Source: a virus. From it: a DNA stretch of 64,000 nucleotides. The stretch's first letter is position 1. Each line of letters starts with the position of its first letter. The notes under the pieces were generated by a model. That model saw only the letters and a list, made by a program, of their open reading frames with translations. It was not told where the DNA came from and made no database searches. Of the stretch, positions 23,237 to 50,068 are shown piece after piece. The DNA lies in the IMG/VR virus record IMGVR_UViG_3300027970_000001, positions 64,001 through 128,000 of that record. One strand, written 5' to 3'. The position numbers and the translations under genes were made by a program.

Positions 23237-23343
23237 TGGTCAAGTCTACCAAAGCCGCGCGGCAATGGCAGCTTGACTGACGCGTGCGCCGCTTCGAGAA
23301 GACCGCGTCACCGACGGCGGCGCGAGGTGCGCCAGTCAGGCGT

Positions 23344-24216
23344 TCATTCATCGAACCTTGGGGGAACCGGGATCGTGTTGCCTCTGATCTGGCAGTCGAC
23401 GGCAACGAGCCGGATGTCATTCGATGAGAATCGCATCTCGCACTCTTGCGGGATGTCCTCGCTCCGCGCGCCCTGCTTGATAGCCGCCTGCACGATGCTG
23501 AACTGGCTCGGCGAGAGATTCAGGTACTTCTTTGCAGAAGCGGTGAAGCCGACCAGGGGCATGCAGACGCCGCCGTCCCACCAGTCGTCCACGGCGAACG
23601 TAGACCGCAGACGGGTCTCGACAAACTGAGCCAGCTCGTACCTGCGCTCGGGAGTGTTCCAGCGCCGGTTCAGGTCATCCCGCTGCTCGTTGACCATCTG
23701 CTTCCAAGGGCCTCCGTGCGAGAGCGACTGGATGTCATCAGGGGGCTCTACGCCTAGCGTTGCGCACAGGTCGCCGAGGTCTTCCGACGCCCGATCCCAT
23801 CCATCGGCTTCGGCATCCTCCCAGTTGTTTTCCCAGATGTCGCCGGGGAATCCTGTCCATTCGAGGGTCAAGAGCAGCACGTCCGACGCATCGCCGTCTT
23901 GGGCCGCAACGAGGAGTCCGCGCATCGACGAGAACAGCCACATGGCTCGCGAGCGGCTGATCACGAAGCTGACCCATTTGCCGCTCGGATCGCTTGGCCC
24001 TCCTCCAAGCCCCACGATCCCCGTCTCAGATCGAGACTTGAGCCCCTGCTTGAATACTCGGTCGCGGTTGGTGGTGACGTGGAAGAAGCCCGCGTCGTCT
24101 TCGGGGCAGTAGTCCTCTAGCACAGTTCCCTCGACCCAGTTGTATGGGTCGAGCAGGAACGTGGCGTCGCGAGGCGGGATCGGATTGCGGCGGGGCCGGC
24201 GCGAGGTGCGCTTCAT
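23344..24216 (-). CDS. ART-like protein with MKRTSRRPRRNP tag
   Basis: FFHVTT...VFKQGLKSR...GGGPSDP...VSF; paralog of 10475-11575. Confidence 0.55.
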   Translation of the reverse strand: MKRTSRRPRRNPIPPRDATFLLDPYNWVEGTVLEDYCPEDDAGFFHVTTNRDRVFKQGLKSRSETGIVGLGGGPSDPSGKWVSFVISRSRAMWLFSSMRGLLVAAQDGDASDVLLLTLEWTGFPGDIWENNWEDAEADGWDRASEDLGDLCATLGVEPPDDIQSLSHGGPWKQMVNEQRDDLNRRWNTPERRYELAQFVETRLRSTFAVDDWWDGGVCMPLVGFTASAKKYLNLSPSQFSIVQAAIKQGARSEDIPQECEMRFSSNDIRLVAVDCQIRGNTIPVPPRFDE

Positions 24217-24234
24217 GCCGACGAGGCTACCGCA

Positions 24235-26196
24235 TCAACGACGGCGGCGCGAGGTGCGCTTGGAGGTGCGGCGGTTCTTGGTGATGACCGGATCTGCCGG
24301 ATCGAACGTACCCTCGTTCGGCCCCGACCCAGCGATGACTTCGCCAGCCATCGCTCCGAGCCCCGACTGTTTGATGGGGCCAGCGGCGGCGGACTTCGCC
24401 TGCGTGGGACTGAACCACACGTAGAGCGTGGCCGACTTCTTACGGCCACGGCCGAAGTTGTCGTTGTAGTAGTCGACCACGTCGTGGACGATTAGTCCGT
24501 CAGCGCCCTGTTCGCGGGCCTTGGCGATCCACTTTTCGGTCCCTCTCCACTCCTTGCCGCCCCAGTCGATGGAGAGCGGGCTCTGGATCGACAGGTAGAG
24601 CGGGATTACTCCTGGCTCGGCGTTCTGGTAGTCCCAGGCCCGATTCGCATCGGCGTAACTTGCCGCCATCGCGTAGCTGTCCGTCGCGAAGAAGGCGTCG
24701 CCGCGCATTGGGCTGCGCCGGAAGCCCTCGGAGAAAATGCCCCGGCCGTCGGGCGTGCCGTGGTAGACGACCAGAGGCGCATTACCCTTGCGGCGGTCCC
24801 TGACCTTGCTGTCCTTGAACCAAGCCTTAAAGGATGGCGTCTCGGTCATGCCGGGGTTCCGCAGGATGCTCAAGTCGTCGGGATCGAAGGTGCCCACGTT
24901 GTCGGTGGCCGACTTGATCTGCCGAGGGTCGAAGACAACGTACTCGTCGTATCCGTGGACCGAAACGATCACGCCGTCGATGCCCGCAGCAGCCATGCCA
25001 CGGATGACGTCCTCTTCCGTAAAATAGACCTTGAACGCTGCGGAATCTGCGAGGAACAGGAACGCCCTGCTGGGGTCAGCGAGGCACTCGCGCATCAGGC
25101 GTCGATGGTCTTCCTTTGCGTCGTATCCGCTTGGGAAGCGAGTCGTCTTGATGGCAGAGAAGAACCGGCGGATCTGATCGGCCGTCATCTCGCCTCTTGT
25201 CGGCCGCTCGATTCGCAGGTAGGTGGCAATCTTGCGCCCGCTGTCGCCGTGGAAAGCCCTCAGCGTGGTGGGATCTGCGCTGAAGTAGAACCCAGGCCCG
25301 AACCTATCCATGCCAGGCGTCGCCGGTCTTTTGAACACGTCAAAGTCGCCCCGGGTGCCGTGGTACAGAACCAGCGGCTCACCGTTCTCATCAACGACCT
25401 TGCTGTCCCCGAACCAGCGGCGGAACGCCGGGTTGTCGAGCGGGCTCGGTCCGTTGCGATCCATCTCGTTTGAGGTGCCGATGATGAGCGCGTCGATGAA
25501 CCGCTGGCCGCGTTGGACAGCCAGCGTCACCCGATGATGCCCATCGTGGACGTACCACACGTCTTCGCCCACCACGGGGAAGTGCCCGTCGAGGAACGGG
25601 TACTTCTCCTCGGGGTAGTCGACTTCTTCGACCTCGCCGGGGCCGTCGAGGATAACTGGAGGCAGCTCGTAGCCCTCGTCCTCAAGCTCGGCCAGCTCGT
25701 CGATGCGCTCTTGGCGGATGGGGTTGATGAAGGGGGATGCGATCTGACTCACCGGCACGCGCTGGATAGCGAAACCCCGCGCGTACTGCGGGATCTGCCC
25801 GTACTCCTCGTCCCACGGAGGGTTTTTCGACATCGCAGACGAGCGGACCCACGCGGCGCCCGATCCACTCTGATCTTTGCTGGCCTCGATGGGTCCATAA
25901 TCTGCGATTGCCGCGGAAAGCAGCTTGGAGGCCACCCCCGTCCGCCTGAAGGAAGGAACCACGTACACGTTCGCTGCGATGGGCGCTTGGCCTGTTCGCT
26001 CCACAATCTGCAACGCTCCGATCGGCTCTCCATCCGCGTACATCACGTACCTGACGCTACGACCGAAATAAGAGTGCTCGCCCAGGAACTTGGCGATGCC
26101 GCGGGCCACAGGGCGGCCCTTCTCTTTTCCGATCTGAGCCACACCGCTCGGGCGACCGACAAGGTACTCAAGTCCTTCGTTGTACTCTTCGCTCAT
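24235..26196 (-). CDS. polyvalent protein: GNAT + ParB-like + two ART-PolyVal domains + basic tail
   Basis: VYVVPSFRRTGVASKLL; VHDGHHRVTLA; AFRRWFGDSKVVDENGEPLVLYHGT; SFKAWFKDSKV...PLVVYHGT; tail ITKNRRTSKRTSRRRR. Confidence 0.85.
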   Translation of the reverse strand: MSEEYNEGLEYLVGRPSGVAQIGKEKGRPVARGIAKFLGEHSYFGRSVRYVMYADGEPIGALQIVERTGQAPIAANVYVVPSFRRTGVASKLLSAAIADYGPIEASKDQSGSGAAWVRSSAMSKNPPWDEEYGQIPQYARGFAIQRVPVSQIASPFINPIRQERIDELAELEDEGYELPPVILDGPGEVEEVDYPEEKYPFLDGHFPVVGEDVWYVHDGHHRVTLAVQRGQRFIDALIIGTSNEMDRNGPSPLDNPAFRRWFGDSKVVDENGEPLVLYHGTRGDFDVFKRPATPGMDRFGPGFYFSADPTTLRAFHGDSGRKIATYLRIERPTRGEMTADQIRRFFSAIKTTRFPSGYDAKEDHRRLMRECLADPSRAFLFLADSAAFKVYFTEEDVIRGMAAAGIDGVIVSVHGYDEYVVFDPRQIKSATDNVGTFDPDDLSILRNPGMTETPSFKAWFKDSKVRDRRKGNAPLVVYHGTPDGRGIFSEGFRRSPMRGDAFFATDSYAMAASYADANRAWDYQNAEPGVIPLYLSIQSPLSIDWGGKEWRGTEKWIAKAREQGADGLIVHDVVDYYNDNFGRGRKKSATLYVWFSPTQAKSAAAGPIKQSGLGAMAGEVIAGSGPNEGTFDPADPVITKNRRTSKRTSRRRR

Positions 26197-26855
26197 CGGT
26201 CTGACCGCTTTAGGTTCTGCTCCCAGAACTCGTACCCCTTGAGGTACATGTCGACAGGCACGCCGTTGACGCCTACCAGGAACTCGGCGGGCACGGCCTT
26301 CCAGATGGCCACCACGCCACCAGGGCGCGGCGGGTCGTACAGCCCACGCCCGTGCCGGAAAGAGGCCCCCACGGCGCCTCCCCAGCCTTCCCAATCGTGG
26401 GGCACATCAAACACGACCCATGACGTGTACTTGTTGTAGCGCGCTCCAGGGTCGCTCGGATCGAACGCGACGAAGAACACCAGATCTGGCGCTTCGCTGT
26501 ATTGGCCCACGCCACGGGGTGAGGCGACGAGGCCCTTGGCGATGATCGAGGAGAGCACGTCGGACTCGGACTTCATGCCCTCGGGCAGCTTCAAGATGCT
26601 GTGAACCAGCCTCGTTGCGTTCGACGGCACCGGAGGCAGAAGAGCGTTCTCTTGCTGCGCATCCATGGCGCCTCGGAGCGCATCGATCATCTTGGTGTTG
26701 TCGAAAAGCTCGTCCTCGGTTAGCCCGAAGACGGGAGCGATGCGCTCGATAAGGTCAAGCGACTGCATCAGGTCGCCCTCGCCTGCCTGCCAGCCGGCGA
26801 AGATGGAAGCGAGGGTGTCGCGGGCGTCGATGTCGATGCTTGCCTGATCAGTCAC
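26193..26855 (-). CDS. hypothetical protein, weak ART-like signature
   Basis: RLVHSI...SIIAKGL...PDLVFF. GTG start overlaps the upstream stop. Confidence 0.45.
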   Translation of the reverse strand: MTDQASIDIDARDTLASIFAGWQAGEGDLMQSLDLIERIAPVFGLTEDELFDNTKMIDALRGAMDAQQENALLPPVPSNATRLVHSILKLPEGMKSESDVLSSIIAKGLVASPRGVGQYSEAPDLVFFVAFDPSDPGARYNKYTSWVVFDVPHDWEGWGGAVGASFRHGRGLYDPPRPGGVVAIWKAVPAEFLVGVNGVPVDMYLKGYEFWEQNLKRSDR

Positions 26856-28497
26856 GGTGGCTCTTGTTCGGGACGATCCGGCGCACATTCAAGCCAGAAT
26901 CCCACGTTCGGAAAGGAAAATCCTTCAAAGGCTCCAGAGGACTGACCGTGTACTTCTTCGGCAGGTCGTCGTAGAAGCTCTTGGGCGGAGTTCCGCCAAT
27001 CCGCTTGCGGCTGACGAAGTCGGGCACGAGAACCTGGCGGTACCGGTTCGCGAACGCCCACTCGACCACGATGTTCAGCGCATCCGAGGCGAACGTGGGG
27101 AAGTACATCTCGCGGAGCAGCTTTTGGACTGACTCTGGCTCATCAATAAGCCTGAACTCCATCCACGGCCTGTCAGACTGGATTTCGACGATCACCAGGC
27201 CAGTCGGCGGAGAGACCGCCATTCGCACCCATCCGATGGCGTACTTGACCCTCTCGTCAGGATGGCCGTCTTGTTTGAAGAATGCGTTGTGCAGGTTGTT
27301 CGTGACGTACTCGCGAGCGTCGTCAAGGTTTACGCGCCACGGCTTTTCAGTCGCCTGCCGCATGGCCTCTTCCGTCACCTCATCGATGACAGCGTTCGGC
27401 ACGGCCAGCACGAGCACGTCCTCTGTTTGAGGTCCGAGCATCTGCGTGCCGTGACCGGAGTGGTAGGTGATGCCGCCGAATACGTCGTACCGAGCGGGCG
27501 ACAGCGACTCGAAGCTCATTTCGACCAGCGCCTCGTCGGTCGCCGGAGGGGAGATGCGGAGCACCTCTTTGGTGACGGGATGCTCAAGCAGGTCCGGCCT
27601 GTGCTCGGAGACCAGCTTCTTCGTCAGCTTGCCGTCCTTTGACTTCAGGTTTGCGATGCGTGCCAGCTTGCTCAAGGCCCACGACCTGGCGGTCCCTGGC
27701 TGGAAGTCACTCAGGATGAGTTCCGGCGTGCCGACGGTGAGATCGTTTGGGCGGGCGCCCCACCATCCCGCGATCGGAGACGGCGTGTATGTCTCGCGAA
27801 GGCCAGCGGGCACGGGGAACTGTTCTTGACGGAAGCCTTCCTGCTCGTCGTCATCTTCATCATCCGGCGGTGCATCGCCATCTTCGTCTTCGCTTAGATC
27901 GTCGACAATCGTGAATCCGACGCGCGGTTCATCGCCAATGCCCTCGCGCCGCTGGCGGCTCTCGGCAGTAAAAGAGACTCCAGCGCCTTGCCGGACAACG
28001 GAGCGCGGTGGAAGGCGGGCTCCGCTTGGAACGTGGGACACGGCTCCGATGGTCGACTGAGCGCCGATCACGCATCCCGAGCCGACCTCGGCGCCATCGC
28101 CGATGGTCGTCATGTCCCCGATCTGAGCATCCTCTCCGACGTATGCTTCAGCCCCCACATCGACGCCCATGCCAATGGACGCGTCTTGGCCGATATCGCC
28201 GCGGATGTCTGCGTGAGCCTCGATGCGGGCCCCGTCGTGAATCACGCCTTGCAGAATCGCGGCGATCGCCACCACGCCATCGCCGATGGTGCAGGGCTCC
28301 ACGATGACACACTGTTCGAGACGGGAGTGGCCGATCGACACGTTGCCGTTCGGCGCGATGATGACGCACCGGTCAAGCTCGGCGCCCCATGAGACCTCTG
28401 CTGAGCCTTCGATGCGCTCCTCGAAGGGCATGGAGTATCGGCGGTTCCAAGCGGGGTCTCGCTTGCGGAAGTCTTCGATGGGGTTGCGGCGTGTCAT
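26848..28497 (-). CDS. MTRRNP-tagged protein with left-handed beta-helix hexapeptide repeats and a C-terminal polyvalent-type domain
   Basis: IGDGVV/IHDGAR/IGQDAS/VGAEAY/VGEDAQ/IGDGAE repeats; acidic linker; WVRM...VEIQSD motif. Confidence 0.7.
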   Translation of the reverse strand: MTRRNPIEDFRKRDPAWNRRYSMPFEERIEGSAEVSWGAELDRCVIIAPNGNVSIGHSRLEQCVIVEPCTIGDGVVAIAAILQGVIHDGARIEAHADIRGDIGQDASIGMGVDVGAEAYVGEDAQIGDMTTIGDGAEVGSGCVIGAQSTIGAVSHVPSGARLPPRSVVRQGAGVSFTAESRQRREGIGDEPRVGFTIVDDLSEDEDGDAPPDDEDDDEQEGFRQEQFPVPAGLRETYTPSPIAGWWGARPNDLTVGTPELILSDFQPGTARSWALSKLARIANLKSKDGKLTKKLVSEHRPDLLEHPVTKEVLRISPPATDEALVEMSFESLSPARYDVFGGITYHSGHGTQMLGPQTEDVLVLAVPNAVIDEVTEEAMRQATEKPWRVNLDDAREYVTNNLHNAFFKQDGHPDERVKYAIGWVRMAVSPPTGLVIVEIQSDRPWMEFRLIDEPESVQKLLREMYFPTFASDALNIVVEWAFANRYRQVLVPDFVSRKRIGGTPPKSFYDDLPKKYTVSPLEPLKDFPFRTWDSGLNVRRIVPNKSHRD

Positions 28498-28499
28498 GG

Positions 28500-30221
28500 T
28501 CAGCGTGCCTCTCTGCTCGTCCGGCGCTTCCGGTTCTTCTCGATGCCGCGAGAGCTGAGCCAGTCGAGGACATCCTGAAGGTCGGTCGACTCGTTGACAT
28601 CCATGCCCTCGGTTTCTTCGGGCGAGATGCCGCGATCGATCAGCCTGCGCACCGTCTCCGGCGTGAACTCGGTGTCCGACCCGTCCGCAGCATCCTCGGT
28701 CATCCACTCGAACGCCACGTCGGGAGAGATGCCCTGCTCCGCCCACTTCTTGACGTCTTGGTAGTCGAAGGTCGGGTCGACTTCGATGAATCCGGTCGCA
28801 ATCCAGTCCTCCGCAGGGAACACGAGGAGCCCCTTCGATCCCTCGCTGTCGGGGTAGAAGCCCTGGTGCCTCCACACATCGGAGATGGCTTTGCGCTTTT
28901 TGATCTGAGCTGCGCTCATCGAAGGCGGCGATACGTCTACGCCTGGGAGTGAAGCCTGACCGGCGGGCGAGAAATATGGCGCAGCGGCGGCAAGACTTGA
29001 TGCGATGCGGCCGGTCTTGATCAGACCTTCCGTCCTTCGGCCACCGTCGTCCTCTTCGATGGCTCTCTGCACCGCCCACGGGAAGTCGCGGAACTCTGCT
29101 GGCGAAACGTCTTCGCCAAGCATGCTTTTGACTGACTGATACGCCGTGAAATAGACTCCTTCGTCCATCCACTCCATGAAGTCAGAGACGTTGCGAACGA
29201 CCTCAAGCCACTTCGTTGCGTAGCCCTCAAGGTGCTCTTCGTCGATCCAGTCGACGTTTTTCTGTGCCCAGTCGACGATCGCTTGAATGTCAGGCGGGAG
29301 CTTCTTCACGTTCAGCGTCGCCATGAAGCTATCGACGTACTTCTTGTACTTCTCGGCAGGCGTCTTGTTCTGCTTGCCGAAGGTCTGGATGGCTTTGTTG
29401 AGGTTCTCGTTCCACTCGATCGTGACGTGCGGAAACCCCTTCGGGTCGCGGATGGAATAGAGCACCGAGTCGCTCATGCGAGCGCGACCGCAGTGCTGCA
29501 TTGCATCCTTCTCTTCTTCGCAGTAGGTGCCGGGAAGTAGCTGAACGGTCCAGCCGTCGTCGAAGGTGTGGGCAATCTCGTGCTGCGTGGGAGGCTTCTT
29601 GCCGGACGAGTCGAAGTCCTCGATCGCCTCCTTCACTTCGTCGAAGCTCATCGACGTGAGGTTCGGCTTTTCCTTCTCGGCCCACTGCCCGATCGCAGTG
29701 CCGCGCGTCTTGAAGAACCGAACGGCCTCAACATACTCGCGAGCCTCTTCGATGATGTGGGGCGCAATGCGATCGCCATCGTCTCGCCGCGTGGCCTGGA
29801 GGGCAGTCACGACAGGCTTGGCCTTGTCTGCCAACTGCTTGGACATCCAAAGGAACGTGCCCTCGGACTGGTTGCGCTCCTTGAAGCCTCGTAGCTCGGA
29901 GACCATCTCGACGAGGATTGGCGTGGCTTCGGCCACCTCGTTCTTGAGTGAGGTGAAAAGCGGTTCGGTTGTCGTGTAAATGACCCTCTCGATGAGGCGG
30001 CTGGCTCGGTATGCCGAGTTGATCTCAGCAGCGTCGTCGGACATGGCGGCTTCGCCCATCGCCTTAATGGCGGCGTCGGTGACGGCCGTCTTCCAGCCGT
30101 CTTCGCCGACGGTGTGGGCGATGACGTCGATCATGGAGAACGTCACAATCGGGTACTTCGCGTACTGCTTGGCGATGTACCGAAGCCGGTCGGCCGGCGG
30201 ATTCTGTTCAAGCCTGGTCAT
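28500..30221 (-). CDS. PcfJ-like domain protein, tagged at both ends
   Basis: EKDAMQHCG...LYSIRDPKGFPHVTIEW; N-terminal LEQNPP, C-terminal IEKNRKRRTSREAR; GAGGAGG SD. Confidence 0.7.
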   Translation of the reverse strand: MTRLEQNPPADRLRYIAKQYAKYPIVTFSMIDVIAHTVGEDGWKTAVTDAAIKAMGEAAMSDDAAEINSAYRASRLIERVIYTTTEPLFTSLKNEVAEATPILVEMVSELRGFKERNQSEGTFLWMSKQLADKAKPVVTALQATRRDDGDRIAPHIIEEAREYVEAVRFFKTRGTAIGQWAEKEKPNLTSMSFDEVKEAIEDFDSSGKKPPTQHEIAHTFDDGWTVQLLPGTYCEEEKDAMQHCGRARMSDSVLYSIRDPKGFPHVTIEWNENLNKAIQTFGKQNKTPAEKYKKYVDSFMATLNVKKLPPDIQAIVDWAQKNVDWIDEEHLEGYATKWLEVVRNVSDFMEWMDEGVYFTAYQSVKSMLGEDVSPAEFRDFPWAVQRAIEEDDGGRRTEGLIKTGRIASSLAAAAPYFSPAGQASLPGVDVSPPSMSAAQIKKRKAISDVWRHQGFYPDSEGSKGLLVFPAEDWIATGFIEVDPTFDYQDVKKWAEQGISPDVAFEWMTEDAADGSDTEFTPETVRRLIDRGISPEETEGMDVNESTDLQDVLDWLSSRGIEKNRKRRTSREAR

Positions 30222-46327: not shown

Positions 46328-47526
46328 TCCACCCTCTTCCGCTTCATGCGGTCCATGTACGTGTCGTAGGCGCCCGACTTGTGCTGAGCGAATCCAAGGC
46401 CCTTGCACCACCAGTCGTTGCGCAAGATCGTCTTGCATACCCGTCGCCACGAGGGCGCCTTGCGGCTCGCTTCTTCCGCAGGAGGCGCCGTGTCAGGGAT
46501 GCCTTCGGGGTACCCACGCGCCTCGTACCACCTGATGAAAACAGAGATTTTGCTGCGGTAGTGCTCGGATGCGTGAGGAGGCAGGGACTCCAGCAGTGAC
46601 ATGGCGAAGTCTTTGTAGGACACGCACGACTCGGGCAGGCTGACAGCCCCGACGCCGTTGACGTTTCCCTTCTCCTTCACGTACAGCGCGCCTCCGTTGA
46701 CGCCAGCGACACGAGCCACGACGCGCGCCCAAGTTGCAGGCTCCATGATGTGGTAGAGCCACAGGCCCTTGCGCTGGTCGTCGCCGTAGGGCTGGCAGAT
46801 GCGCATCTGGTGCGGCGTCAGGCCAGCGGCGAACATCAGGTCGTAGACCTTGTTGTACGGGGCTCCGGTGACCGCGTGGTAGTGCCAGATGTCGTCAACG
46901 TGCCAGTCATAGATCGGATACGCGTTGTAGGCGTTCTCAGACAGCCTCGTCGTCCAGCACAGGCCCTCGTGCGTCTCCTTTTCATCAGAGGCGATGGTTC
47001 TGAAACGGTTGATTGACTCGTCCGTTCGGATGCCGACGAAACACGCCGTGTGCTTTCCATGCGCGTACCACTCGCCAAAATCAGCGATCAGGTCTTCAAA
47101 CTCCATCCCCCGCTTGAACCAGGGGAAGGTGCCCTCGTCCGTGATTGCGACACTCGGCGGCTGCCTGACCCACTTGTCCTTGGCAGACGGATCCCAGCAC
47201 GTCCACTTCGGCTCGAACACGCTCACCCCGTTGCGCAGGCCAATGGGCAGCGCAAGCCAGTACGGATCGACGATGTCGGCGTTCTTCTCGTAGCAGGACA
47301 AGACGAAGTCGACGGTGGCGGTGTACTGAGCTTCCAGGTCGATGAACAGCAAGCCGACCTTGCGCGACCTGGCCCGCGCCTCTTCCAGCACGAGGGCGAG
47401 CATGACCGTCGAGTCCTTGCCGCCAGAAAACGAGACGTAGATGCGCTCGAAGTCGTCGAATACCCTTGAAATCCTGCTCTTGGCGGCCGTCAGCACGTCA
47501 ACATCAAGCTGAGCCTTCTTCTTCAA
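46312..47526 (-). CDS. ibrA: IbrA/YbdN-like PAPS-reductase-domain protein with DUF3440
   Basis: SFSGGKDS, FIDLEAQY, VGIRTDES..R, YPIYDW, RICQPYGDDQRKGL, CKTILRNDWWCKGLGF. Confidence 0.9.
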   Translation of the reverse strand: MKKKAQLDVDVLTAAKSRISRVFDDFERIYVSFSGGKDSTVMLALVLEEARARSRKVGLLFIDLEAQYTATVDFVLSCYEKNADIVDPYWLALPIGLRNGVSVFEPKWTCWDPSAKDKWVRQPPSVAITDEGTFPWFKRGMEFEDLIADFGEWYAHGKHTACFVGIRTDESINRFRTIASDEKETHEGLCWTTRLSENAYNAYPIYDWHVDDIWHYHAVTGAPYNKVYDLMFAAGLTPHQMRICQPYGDDQRKGLWLYHIMEPATWARVVARVAGVNGGALYVKEKGNVNGVGAVSLPESCVSYKDFAMSLLESLPPHASEHYRSKISVFIRWYEARGYPEGIPDTAPPAEEASRKAPSWRRVCKTILRNDWWCKGLGFAQHKSGAYDTYMDRMKRKRVEWNIL

Positions 47527-49157
47527 GAGGGCGCCCCCTGAGACATCTCAAGGAAGAGCAGCGACGCGTCGGTCGCCGTGAGATAGTCCGCGGTCTTGAT
47601 GCGGTGCAGGAGCCCGTGGATGGCCCGCTTGTCGGCGCCTGGTGCGTAGCTTGCGCAAGCGAGGTCTGCTTCGACGCCCTTGACGATCAGGTATGGCCGC
47701 ACGGAGCGCAGGAAATCTGGCACATGAGCCTGGAGGATGCCGAAGGAGTGGAACGGCCGCGCCTCTCCGACGGGTGGCCGCGTGGTCACAGTCGTGCAGA
47801 TGGAGGGCCCGATGACCAGCCGCATGTCTTCGAGGGCATCGCGGTCTGCGGCGCCGAACACGACGGCCGTCTGGAAATACTCCGACTTGCCCCTGGCCTC
47901 CCTGAGCATGACGATGCTTCCATCTCCGTCGAGCATTCCAGCGAGCCACGCGCGGTGAGCCGACGACGGCTCGTGGGGCACCGCGGGGCGTCCGGCGATC
48001 TCTGCCGCCCTGGATCTTGCTTCGGAGTCGCCCTTCTTGATCTGGCTGGAGAGGCGTTGGATCTCGAAGTCAGCTTCCGTGGCTCGGTAGTGCGCAGCGT
48101 GAGCAGACCTGTTTGCGATCTCCAGGGCCAAGTACGCCTCCAGCCGCTTGCCGCGAAGCAAGGGGGCCAGGGCTCCAAGAAGCAGGCGTACCTTGTCCTT
48201 CCCAGACACGGTAATGGAGTAGAACTCCCTCTGCGACATCCGTTCGCTCGCTTTTGGAGCGCGGACGTTCATCGTCGGCGTGGATCCGATGATGCCGGTG
48301 ACGATCTGCGAGACGCGATCCATCGCAGGGCGGTTCACCAGGCCCACGGTCACGGTCACGATGACGTTGTTCGGACGGCTGGTATGCCGACGGATGTGGA
48401 AGCACCCCTCGGCATCCATCAATCCAGCGAACCATGCCATGTCGGCGTCGGTGTCCCCCATGGGGGAAGGACGTAACACCGAAGGTTGCAAACCGCAAGG
48501 GGCGTCTGTTTGCCGGGGGACCTTTCGCGGCTCACGAAGTGGCGGCCGGAACCCGGTTGCGAGCAACTGACGCCACTTGAAGGAATCGAGCCACTCGCCA
48601 AGGCGGACGACATCCGACTGATGGTTTACCGACACGTTCCATGTGCCGGACTTTTTCCCAAACCGCATTGTGGCAGTAATGCCTTGCGATTCGATCTGCT
48701 GCTTGACCCATGTCGACAGCACGGTGTCTTTTTGCGAGAAGACAAACAATCCCCAGCGTTTTCCTGGGTATCTGGCGTCTTTTCTCACCGTGAAGCAGCC
48801 ATCCGTCTCGACAAGTCCGCGAAGGAACTGACGACGGAACTCTGGCGAGTCGTTCACCCAGGCCGGCGGAACCATCGAACCGTCAGGAGACCTTTTGGAG
48901 GAGACCCCAAACACATCATGGACGTTTCTGACGTTGATGTAAATCTCGAAGAACGGTGTTTTTGTGGTCCTTTTCTGGCACTCGTTGAACCTGCCGAAGA
49001 CGACCGTGAACAGGCGTTTTATCTCAGCCCTCCACGCCGGATACTTGTCGCCGGAGCACATGGCGACGCGGTACGTGGACGCGCGCGGCACCGGGGTGAT
49101 GTAGCCATCGCCGTAGATTGCCCCGAGCAGAAGGGCCAAGTCGGCCGATGCAATCAT
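47523..49157 (-). CDS. free-standing LAGLIDADG homing endonuclease with four motifs
   Basis: LLGAIYGDGYI, FLRGLVETDGCF, WFAGLMDAEGCF, WLAGMLDGDGSI; no intein termini. Confidence 0.85.
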   Translation of the reverse strand: MIASADLALLLGAIYGDGYITPVPRASTYRVAMCSGDKYPAWRAEIKRLFTVVFGRFNECQKRTTKTPFFEIYINVRNVHDVFGVSSKRSPDGSMVPPAWVNDSPEFRRQFLRGLVETDGCFTVRKDARYPGKRWGLFVFSQKDTVLSTWVKQQIESQGITATMRFGKKSGTWNVSVNHQSDVVRLGEWLDSFKWRQLLATGFRPPLREPRKVPRQTDAPCGLQPSVLRPSPMGDTDADMAWFAGLMDAEGCFHIRRHTSRPNNVIVTVTVGLVNRPAMDRVSQIVTGIIGSTPTMNVRAPKASERMSQREFYSITVSGKDKVRLLLGALAPLLRGKRLEAYLALEIANRSAHAAHYRATEADFEIQRLSSQIKKGDSEARSRAAEIAGRPAVPHEPSSAHRAWLAGMLDGDGSIVMLREARGKSEYFQTAVVFGAADRDALEDMRLVIGPSICTTVTTRPPVGEARPFHSFGILQAHVPDFLRSVRPYLIVKGVEADLACASYAPGADKRAIHGLLHRIKTADYLTATDASLLFLEMSQGAPS

Positions 49158-49164
49158 GCCGCGC

Positions 49165-49193
49165 ACGCTACAAGCGATGCGGCGAGAGGTCAA
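49165..49193 (-). promoter_or_regulatory. sigma70-type promoter of the endonuclease gene (leaderless)
   Basis: TTGACC-17 nt-TAGCGT-7 nt-ATG. Confidence 0.7.
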
Positions 49194-49273: not shown

Positions 49274-50068
49274 TCAGAGGACGTCGCGCGAGTGGATGCC
49301 GTCGATGAGGTACTTGATGTCCTTCTCGATGTCATCCGAGCCCTGGACCGACACGCCGGTGCCGGCGCCGTAGCCCACGTCGGTCGTCGGCGCGTTCTGG
49401 CCGATCGAGCCGGCGGGGCCGTTGTCCGGCACGAGGCCGTTGAGCTGCTCGATGATCGACGCGCCGACCGTCTGCCCGATGGGCGACAGGATCGCGACGA
49501 CCTGGAAGCCCTGGCGGGGCGGGATCAGGACCGGACGGGCCAGCCGCATGAGCGCCGACGACGTCGGAACGCCGTTGTTCGCGCGGGGCAGGCGGGTGTC
49601 CGCGAAGAAGCCGTCCAGGCCACCAGCGAACGGCGTGTACGCCGTGAAGGTGGTGAGCTGGGGCTTGTCACCGGCCGTGAGCTGCCAGAAGATCTGGTTC
49701 TCGGCCTGGTGGTACAGCTTGTGGACGCGCAGGACGCGGTCGGGGACCGTGCCGTTGACCGCCGAAGCGAGCGGCGCCGACGCGTTCGCGGCGCCGATGT
49801 TGTACTGCGCTTCCAGGTTGACCCGGAAGTACGTCCAGACGCGGACCGCGAGGGTCACGAAGGTCTGGTCGGAGGGGAAGAACCCGCCGGTGGTCAGGTT
49901 CGAGATGGAGACATCCGCACCCTGACGGGTGAAGAGCTGCATCCGGCCCTGCATCGCGCCGAAGAGACCGGCGTTGCGGCTGCGGAGGTTCTGATTGCCA
50001 TCCACGCGGATGAGCGAATCGTAGAAGGGCTGATGAACGCGCTCTCGGGTACCAACGATCTTCGGCAT
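49274..50068 (-). CDS. putative major capsid protein (jelly-roll type, inferred)
   Basis: 264 aa and beta-rich (RERVHQPFYDSL...SNLTTGG.FPSDQTFVTLAVRV...RLARPVLIPPRQGFQV...YLIDGIHSRDV). Codons end almost exclusively in G/C; structured leader and its own terminator. Confidence 0.55.
   Translation of the reverse strand: MPKIVGTRERVHQPFYDSLIRVDGNQNLRSRNAGLFGAMQGRMQLFTRQGADVSISNLTTGGFFPSDQTFVTLAVRVWTYFRVNLEAQYNIGAANASAPLASAVNGTVPDRVLRVHKLYHQAENQIFWQLTAGDKPQLTTFTAYTPFAGGLDGFFADTRLPRANNGVPTSSALMRLARPVLIPPRQGFQVVAILSPIGQTVGASIIEQLNGLVPDNGPAGSIGQNAPTTDVGYGAGTGVSVQGSDDIEKDIKYLIDGIHSRDVL

Follow-up and report, generated by a model that had tools for sequence, protein, structure and literature searches.

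Polyvalent proteins carry at least two unrelated effector domains in one polypeptide and are thought to be packaged arsenals, whose assembly from domains, loading and release have so far been mostly a matter of conjecture. Iyer, Burroughs, Anand, de Souza and Aravind proposed in 2017 that they are released into separate domains by proteolysis, and credited this release to peptidase domains in the same protein (zincin MPTase, assemblin-like; PMC5512222). Here we analyze a 653-residue protein of this class, encoded at 24235-26196(-) in a window of 64,000 nucleotides, the whole stretch of DNA that was analyzed (positions 64,001 to 128,000 of IMG/VR virus record IMGVR_UViG_3300027970_000001; coordinates are those of the window, and (-) marks the minus strand). 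Like the polyvalent proteins described previously (PMC5512222), it joins unrelated effector domains, namely H-Y-D-type ADP-ribosyltransferase (ART), GNAT and ParB/sulfiredoxin (Srx) domains, in one virus-encoded polypeptide. Unlike them, it has no embedded peptidase domain by Pfam and is seamed by an asparagine motif that is found lineage-wide and that also borders basic tags on many single-domain proteins. Comparison with relatives suggests that the protein was very probably built by modular fusion at the borders of such tags. Whether its seams are also cut is weighed below.

These seams find their closest working analogy in the codes for capsid targeting and prohead proteases of T4 (gp21, L/I-x-E) and of phiKZ and SPN3US (gp245, A-X-E). 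In SPN3US, gp245 cuts head cargo at A-X-E, and nearly all of the identified cleavages remove N-terminal propeptides, the exception being self-cleavage of the protease (PMC10052503). The likeness lies in a short motif with a fixed residue on many unrelated proteins, which at our locus is known from sequence alone. In the T4 and SPN3US systems, the cargo is addressed by terminal peptides that can be removed, and certain substrates have more than one site. In contrast to these codes with Glu at P1, the residue predicted at P1 here is Asn, and the tags are strongly basic and occur at both termini. We found no P1-Asn phage maturation code described in the literature.

Two further systems resemble the locus in part. 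Adenain cuts adenovirus core and precursor proteins on DNA at (M/I/L)-X-G-X-G. There, as proposed here, basic DNA-binding segments are removed, and the motif has a hydrophobic residue located three or four positions ahead of the cut. Unlike adenovirus, however, the present host is bacterial, the predicted P1 residue is Asn, and no homologue of the C5 protease was found in five related complete genomes (G001-G005). Asparagine peptide lyases with an Asn-Pro scissile bond include YscU/FlhB (N-P-T-H) and reovirus mu1 (N42-P43), and Asn-Pro likewise stands at the presumed break of the seams. These lyases are folded and self-catalyzing, whereas the seams lie in linkers and tails and many read Asn-Arg or Asn-Gly. 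Membership in lyase families N6/N7 was considered and rejected, as no T-H follows the motif, the residue after Asn varies and the seams are in low-confidence linkers.

The gene is a single uninterrupted open reading frame (ORF) with its stop codon within the coordinates, and the product is approximately 72 kDa. Its ATG start shares bases with the stop codon of the gene upstream (ATGA), and a longer version with a TTG start in the ORF-finder listing was unnecessary. By Pfam, AlphaFold and Foldseek the protein consists of four modules: GNAT, a ParB/Srx fold and two copies of ART-PolyVal. The AlphaFold model was built from a 45-sequence alignment (mean predicted local distance difference test [pLDDT] score 71); without the alignment the model was unusable (pLDDT 32). 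Module 1 (residues 1-121, 25834..26196(-)) is a predicted small GNAT acetyltransferase with its core at residues 46-99. The isolated piece matched Acetyltransf_7 with 32.2 bits against a cut-off of 27, and the match was partial (model positions 6-54 of 84, about the first 60%). The model of residues 1-123 was of low confidence and is unreliable, because there were few GNAT homologues in the alignment.

Module 2 (residues 128-240, 25477..25815(-); pLDDT 80-93) had been called ParB-like in a sequence-only reading of this DNA. The label is right at the level of the fold, because in Foldseek the AlphaFold model aligned with sulfiredoxin, Noc and ParB (probability 1.0, target TM-score 0.5-0.66, root-mean-square deviation 3.6 A across about 100 residues). 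Pfam gave no ParBc match to this module, and a sequence-profile search of the PDB with the ParB-fold alignment returned nothing meaningful. Its DGHHR motif was invariant among 11 homologues. Modules 3 (residues 256-440, 24877..25431(-)) and 4 (residues 455-604, 24385..24834(-)) matched ART-PolyVal (PF18760) with 86 bits over model positions 1-140 of 140 and 53 bits over positions 5-134 of 140, respectively, both above the Pfam gathering cut-off of 31.2 bits; module 3 was modeled mostly with pLDDT >90. Read by eye rather than by alignment to the published His-Tyr-Asp active site, both copies retain the His of Y-H-G-T, and the position of the catalytic Tyr is F-Y-F in copy 1 and F-F in copy 2 and several relatives. 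Copy 2 (24385-24834(-)) may therefore be a variant or inactive ART. The top Foldseek row against the PDB was a chain of the cyanophage A4 pre-ejectosome (9k3a_B), a weak match (E 1.5e-3, TM-score 0.12-0.18) and a weak hint of ART-type modules in structurally resolved ejected phage proteins.

Re-translation placed the four motifs exactly where the sequence-only reading had them. Seam 1 (M-S-K-N-P, N125, 25819..25833(-)) was supported by the gene starts of relatives. Seam 2 (M-D-R-N-G, N248, 25450..25464(-)) coincides with the sole break of pLDDT <50 between modules 2 and 3 (residues 243-248), and its N-G is retained in five close relatives in which the two preceding residues vary (DR, ER, KQ). 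Seam 3 (I-L-R-N-P, N447, 24853..24867(-)) ends a conserved ART tail shared with homologues, where pLDDT falls to 73-76 between blocks of 94-95 and 85-94. Seam 4 (I-T-K-N-R, N641, 24271..24285(-)) lies within a disordered tail (residues 605-653, pLDDT <50) and is followed by a C-terminal basic tag of 12 residues (RRTSKRTSRRRR, 24238..24273(-)), which was recognized from motif enrichment and from the tag DNA of a relative described below. The confident blocks of the model are the ParB-fold domain and both ARTs, and each piece delimited by the motifs contained a complete or near-complete domain model when searched in isolation with Pfam. Thus the AlphaFold gaps, the coverage of the Pfam models and the ends of stand-alone genes agree that the motifs lie between the domains, as had been claimed, and none was found inside a folded domain. 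Seam 1 abuts the C-terminal edge of the GNAT model, extrapolated from the partial Pfam match to about residue 125-128, and is not within a long linker.

We then considered whether four Asn could have fallen by chance into linkers rich in Asn, Pro and Gly; expected counts for the window were taken from within-protein shuffles. The loose motif hydrophobic-x-x-N is at chance level and uninformative (L, I, V or M at position -3 in 6 of the 17 Asn of the 653-residue protein), and the dipeptides NP and NG are not enriched in the window (z 0.8 and 1.1, respectively). Since the dipeptides themselves are not enriched, the signal lies in their context. The protein has exactly four copies of the tight motif hydrophobic-x-[KR]-N, one per inter-domain gap or tail. 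These four gaps make up approximately 14% of the chain, and the probability of one tight motif in each is ~1.5e-5 by post hoc arithmetic. With [PG] added, the motif occurs 8 times in the window compared with 2.2 +- 1.5 after shuffling, and three of the eight are in the 653-residue protein, where ~0.07 would be expected for its size. Further, the seams are homologous to the tag borders of stand-alone genes. We consider chance extremely improbable.

In this lineage many unrelated predicted proteins bear portable basic tags, always with an Asn at the border of the folded domain. The N-terminal tag has the form M-(basic)-R-N followed by P, and the C-terminal tag has the form hydrophobic-x-x-N followed by an Arg-rich run. 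The four seams of the 653-residue protein are tag borders of this kind. In the window, [KR][KR]NP occurred 5 times (0.5 after shuffling), N followed by three basic residues 9 times (1.2) and [KR]TS[KR][KR] 10 times (0.1). Within the last 22 residues of 72 proteins, Asn preceded a basic triplet in 7 of 19 cases, compared with a background of 2.5%. The codons of these seven Asn differ, and therefore the pattern is held at the protein level. Asn is fixed at tag borders genome-wide, well beyond chance. The residue that follows it is variable (P, G, R, A, V, M, Y or T); it is Arg at all C-terminal tags and most commonly Pro at N-terminal-type and ART-tail junctions. The border Asn is also kept in an orthologue of 31% identity in which the tag was rewritten (M-R-R-N in the window, L-V-R-N in G001).

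The other sites that had been listed for the window are present: LKQN-R and LRAN-T in 55325-56536, LETN-P in 56533-57306, LTPN-Y in 57310-57999 and PRRN-G in 39262-40110. In at least seven other proteins of the window a hydrophobic-x-x-N junction precedes an Arg tail, and the L-R-A-N seam ahead of the NUDIX domain in 55325-56536 is the N-terminal tag border of the protein P0013. The membrane protein encoded at 57310-57999(-) has a transmembrane helix, V-A-A-N, a basic spacer of approximately 25 residues, L-T-P-N and then the next domain; this double-Asn spacer resembles those at ART junctions of other lineages.

Relatives of the gene show the seams as gene borders. In two relatives with 95-97% identity (L006 and L007), the gene begins at seam 1 and there is no GNAT. 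Both are syntenic and metagenomic. The L006 gene encodes a protein that is 97% identical and 530 residues long; it starts two residues ahead of the Trp that follows seam 1 (W128) and lacks both the GNAT module and the downstream 290-residue gene. In both relatives homology picks up again at 25816 (W128). Stand-alone ParB-fold homologues of 132-135 residues begin just before the equivalent of W128 and end at the equivalent of G240. The start of P0034, M-P-R-R-N-P-P, directly precedes the ParB-fold domain and corresponds to seam 1; that of P0009, M-R-K-N, directly precedes the N-terminal helix of the ART and corresponds to seam 2. Some homologues of module 2 from other lineages (P0125, P0128, P0130, P0126 and P0134) have a Gly-rich motif ahead of the ParB fold in place of Asn-Pro, such as G-Q-G-L-G-A-A or L-G-L-A-G.

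The homologue in L007, a 133-kb contig, consists of the ParB fold, an ART and an unrelated domain, and is followed by separate tagged genes. One of these, L007:14009-14662, encodes one ART, with a basic tag at the N-terminus that ends in R-R-N-P and a C-terminal I-T-R-N followed by an Arg-rich run. A second stand-alone ART gene, L007:11739-12923, is similar to it, and three further adjacent genes end with hydrophobic-x-K-N and the same tail as the ART genes. Seam 2 matches the N-termini of both of these ARTs and of P0009. Seam 4 with its tail is the C-terminal tag that is also found on five neighboring stand-alone L007 genes, and at the DNA level the C-terminal tag of the 653-residue protein shares 93% identity with the tails of two L007 genes. 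In at least nine proteins the ART tail finishes with S-I-L-R-N-P, as at seam 3, and unrelated modules come after it. Whether homologous genomes carry the domains as separate tagged genes had been named as a check, and the stand-alone ART genes of L007, tagged at both ends, are such genes. In L007:8287-10008 the homologue of the upstream 231-residue gene is fused to an extra N-terminal domain with its own basic tag, and the junction, V-R-N-G, is the exact position of the gene start in the window and L006.

Two of the seams begin with Met and had been likened to the starts of tagged genes; M122 and M245 indeed align with the start codons of P0034 and P0009. This alignment, together with the start of the L006 and L007 genes two residues downstream of seam 1, would also fit a model in which translation begins internally at M122 and M245, start codons left over from the fused genes, and gives separate products with no cutting. 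No ribosome-binding signal was present upstream of M122 or M245. However, many genes here have no recognizable Shine-Dalgarno sequence, and its absence at these two sites is uninformative because real genes of the virus are also without it. Seams 3 and 4 have Ile and not Met, and internal starts leave the Asn unexplained. We regard this explanation as very improbable.

Comparison of the window with L006 revealed three clean cassette differences: the gene of 573 residues with RRNP codons, the GNAT module and the 290-residue gene. The first cassette (28482-30214) is absent at L006:7720 and from L007. Its insertion gives the next gene, which encodes a hexapeptide-repeat protein, four extra residues R-R-N-P after M-T; the gene thus starts with M-T-R-R-N-P in the window and M-T in L006 and L007, a 12-nt difference. 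The 573-residue protein itself has Q-N-P-P at its N-terminus and K-N with a basic tail at its C-terminus. The GNAT cassette, which includes seam 1 (25817..26207(-), joint 25816/26214), is replaced by approximately 24-30 other letters in L006, L007, X15 and X20. The third cassette (23333-24221(-), joint 23294/24222) contains the downstream 290-residue gene (23344..24216(-)), whose N-terminal tag ends in R-R-N-P. This cassette is absent from L006. On either side of it lies one copy of a 31-nt direct repeat (29 of 31 positions identical) coding for the last part of a basic tag with its stop codon.

A tag-coding 20-mer is present in four copies in the window (0.15 expected). One copy is in the C-terminal tag of the 653-residue gene (24242..24261(-)), another in the N-terminal tag of the downstream gene (24194..24213(-), codon phase checked), and a relic copy lies in the spacer after the 290-residue gene as the right-hand member of the 31-nt repeat (23315..23334(-)). 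The first two are 48 nt (16 codons) apart in the same codon phase, and thus loss of the intervening DNA in one event would join the next gene on as a fifth module. Such a deletion would create a seam of Asn, basic spacer and Asn-Pro; at least ten proteins from related lineages have double-Asn spacers of this kind where ARTs are joined, and another is in the window at 57310-57999. In the spacer at 23295-23346(-), four codons after the TGA of the 290-residue gene and in frame with it, the DNA encodes R-T-S-R-R-R-R-stop; this stop-separated tag is possibly a relic of cassette insertion or a read-through extension.

Both forms of the gene are real and occur in lake metagenomes of separate studies. 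The 653-residue ORF is covered at 99-100% identity by contigs of two independent lake-water studies, and in the lake-water contigs X10 and X12 the stretch with seams 1-3 of the fused gene is present at 99-100% identity. The GNAT module is missing from X15 and X20, and X20 also has the form that lacks the 290-residue gene. The gene starts of relatives, the stand-alone tagged genes and the tag-coding repeats give good support to the proposal that the protein was built by fusing tagged genes. Separately tagged modules were very probably brought together by recombination in or beside tag-coding DNA, and the basic tracts were later lost at internal seams while the Asn-[Pro/Gly] core was retained.

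The history of seam 3 can be followed within the ART family. In almost every ART-PolyVal copy, Q-I-K-S-A is followed by the tail G-x-F-D-P-x-x-P-D-I-x-x-Z. In approximately 190 such tails Z was Asn in 57, Ser in 57, Gln in 16 and Ala in 12, and the tails of the Asn type mostly continue with Pro, often followed by runs of Arg. Because the tail is common family-wide with a varied Z, it is an old feature of the module and its Asn-Pro ending is specific to the lineage. In this lineage a linker that already existed was adapted to the lineage motif.

The same I-x-x-Z tail is the first of several points that fit an explanation without cutting, in which the seams are hinges or docking motifs, the protein works at full length and Asn-[Pro/Gly] marks the turn-forming border of a basic arm. 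The junctions would then persist by inheritance with the module, or because a partner in packaging or DNA binding reads them. In linkers, Asn-Gly and Asn-Pro often serve as turn or cap dipeptides, and seam 3 is moderately ordered in the model. A plain hinge, however, leaves unexplained why Asn is fixed at the N- and C-terminal tag borders of dozens of unrelated proteins, and why it survived replacement of the tag, or its deletion at internal seams. We consider hinges or docking motifs a real possibility, short of likely.

Cleavage at the seams would account for these two observations: Asn is fixed at both kinds of tag on unrelated proteins while the following residue varies, and it outlasts both the loss of the basic tract at internal seams and the rewriting of the tag in the 31%-identical orthologue. 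According to this proposal, the remaining C-terminal tag would direct the whole protein to viral DNA or the particle, and the seams would be processing sites with Asn at P1, at which a viral enzyme would free the modules and remove the tag. The trimming of head cargo at a P1 Glu by T4 gp21 and by the phiKZ/SPN3US prohead protease is a precedent for such processing. A candidate for the enzyme is a transglutaminase-fold Cys enzyme seen in relatives as a sub-threshold Transglut_core match (two of the five related complete genomes; a related copy of the gene lies at G001:47449-48066). We hold cleavage at the seams to be possible, with a likelihood slightly below even. The explanation as a whole, tagged-module fusion with processing at Asn seams, stands about equally, just under an even chance. 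It includes the prediction that the protein is a polyvalent anti-host effector with an acetyltransferase, a ParB/Srx-fold NTPase or nuclease and two ADP-ribosyltransferases, and that it comes from an uncultured freshwater bacterial virus of ~130-170 kb.

Several observations weigh against cleavage. Pfam detected no peptidase among the proteins of the window, and hence no cognate maturation protease of the T4 or SPN3US type; in the five related complete genomes there was neither adenain (C5) nor an HK97-type (S78) protease, and S77, ClpP and S49 were not searched for. Pro at P1' is disfavored by most endopeptidases. A hinge or docking role would suit the junctions just as well. Seam 3 is in the conserved, semi-ordered ART tail, in which residues other than Asn also occupy position Z. 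Seams 3 and 4 were inherited with the ART modules and are thus not independent events, and double-Asn spacers, which arise automatically from fusion of tagged genes, are not independent evidence for cutting. Further, G001-G005 have no orthologue of the gene by protein search and PF18760 search, and tags are rarer in G001, the one of these genomes that was examined whole. Other polyvalent proteins, namely N4 vRNAP, ArdC and TraC1, are transferred unprocessed (PMC5512222).

The apparent lack of a protease gene would also suit self-scission, in which Asn-Pro or Asn-Gly breaks via a succinimide as in asparagine peptide lyases, slowly or when triggered in the particle. Pro follows Asn more often than any other residue does at N-terminal-type and ART-tail junctions, and assembly-dependent Asn cleavage recurs in virus capsids (MEROPS N1, N2 and N6-N8). 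Known lyases, however, require a folded catalytic environment, whereas the seams lie in low-confidence linkers and tails of unrelated proteins. The following residue varies widely, with Arg at all C-terminal tags, and uncatalyzed scission of Asn-Pro is very slow. Self-scission at the seams is improbable.

Enzymatic cleavage after Asn can be extended to a broader proposal, which is speculative and in our view rather unlikely in all its parts. A virion cargo system not described before would recognize the Asn border. In it, the transglutaminase-fold Cys enzyme would either cleave behind Asn or act like a sortase and transfer the acyl group, and during maturation enzymes and membrane proteins would thereby be freed from their DNA-binding Arg tags. 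The 653-residue protein would then be a bacterial-virus polyprotein that gives four enzymes, and the tag-coding DNA a recombination linker that shuffles cargo genes.

The 653-residue protein is phage-encoded, and its neighboring genes are typical phage anti-defense cargo: SNF2, PcfJ, GP88, NUDIX and a DNA methylase. No close phage record contained the gene, and the best identity in tblastn was approximately 35% over one ART domain. A capsid-like gene lies at 49277-50068(-); it encodes 264 residues and has a very high GC content at third codon positions. Neither Pfam nor PHROGs gave a match for proteins of the capsid module. The capsid-like protein has relatives with 64-97% identity in IMG/VR contigs (loci L009-L015), including five virus genomes of 150-300 kb rated 90-100% complete, two of them with terminal repeats, in which identity is 64-74%. 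It probably serves as the major capsid protein of a virus group that has yet to be described. Neither a terminase nor a portal nor an HK97-type protease was recognized. The conserved N-terminal Asn of the capsid-like protein sits within a generally conserved stretch and is thus uninformative either way. Next to this gene, 47526-49193(-) encodes a protein of 556 residues whose central part contains LAGLIDADG/homing-endonuclease domains. The orthologue in G001 has 434 residues from stop to stop, compared with 602 in the window, and aligns over approximately 200 residues near the N-terminus; the gene may be a core gene interrupted by an intein.

Natural variants thus make the route of assembly of a polyvalent protein readable: tag-coding repeats are where whole tagged modules insert or fuse, and the Asn signature is kept. 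Because its seams are tag-border junctions, the 653-residue protein is a good test case for whether such junctions are cut; it is one expressible substrate of 72 kDa with four sites, which can be assayed without culturing the virus. If the signature is a cutting site, it would be a new P1-Asn maturation code in uncultured large freshwater viruses, and would provide a simple sequence rule for predicting virion cargo.

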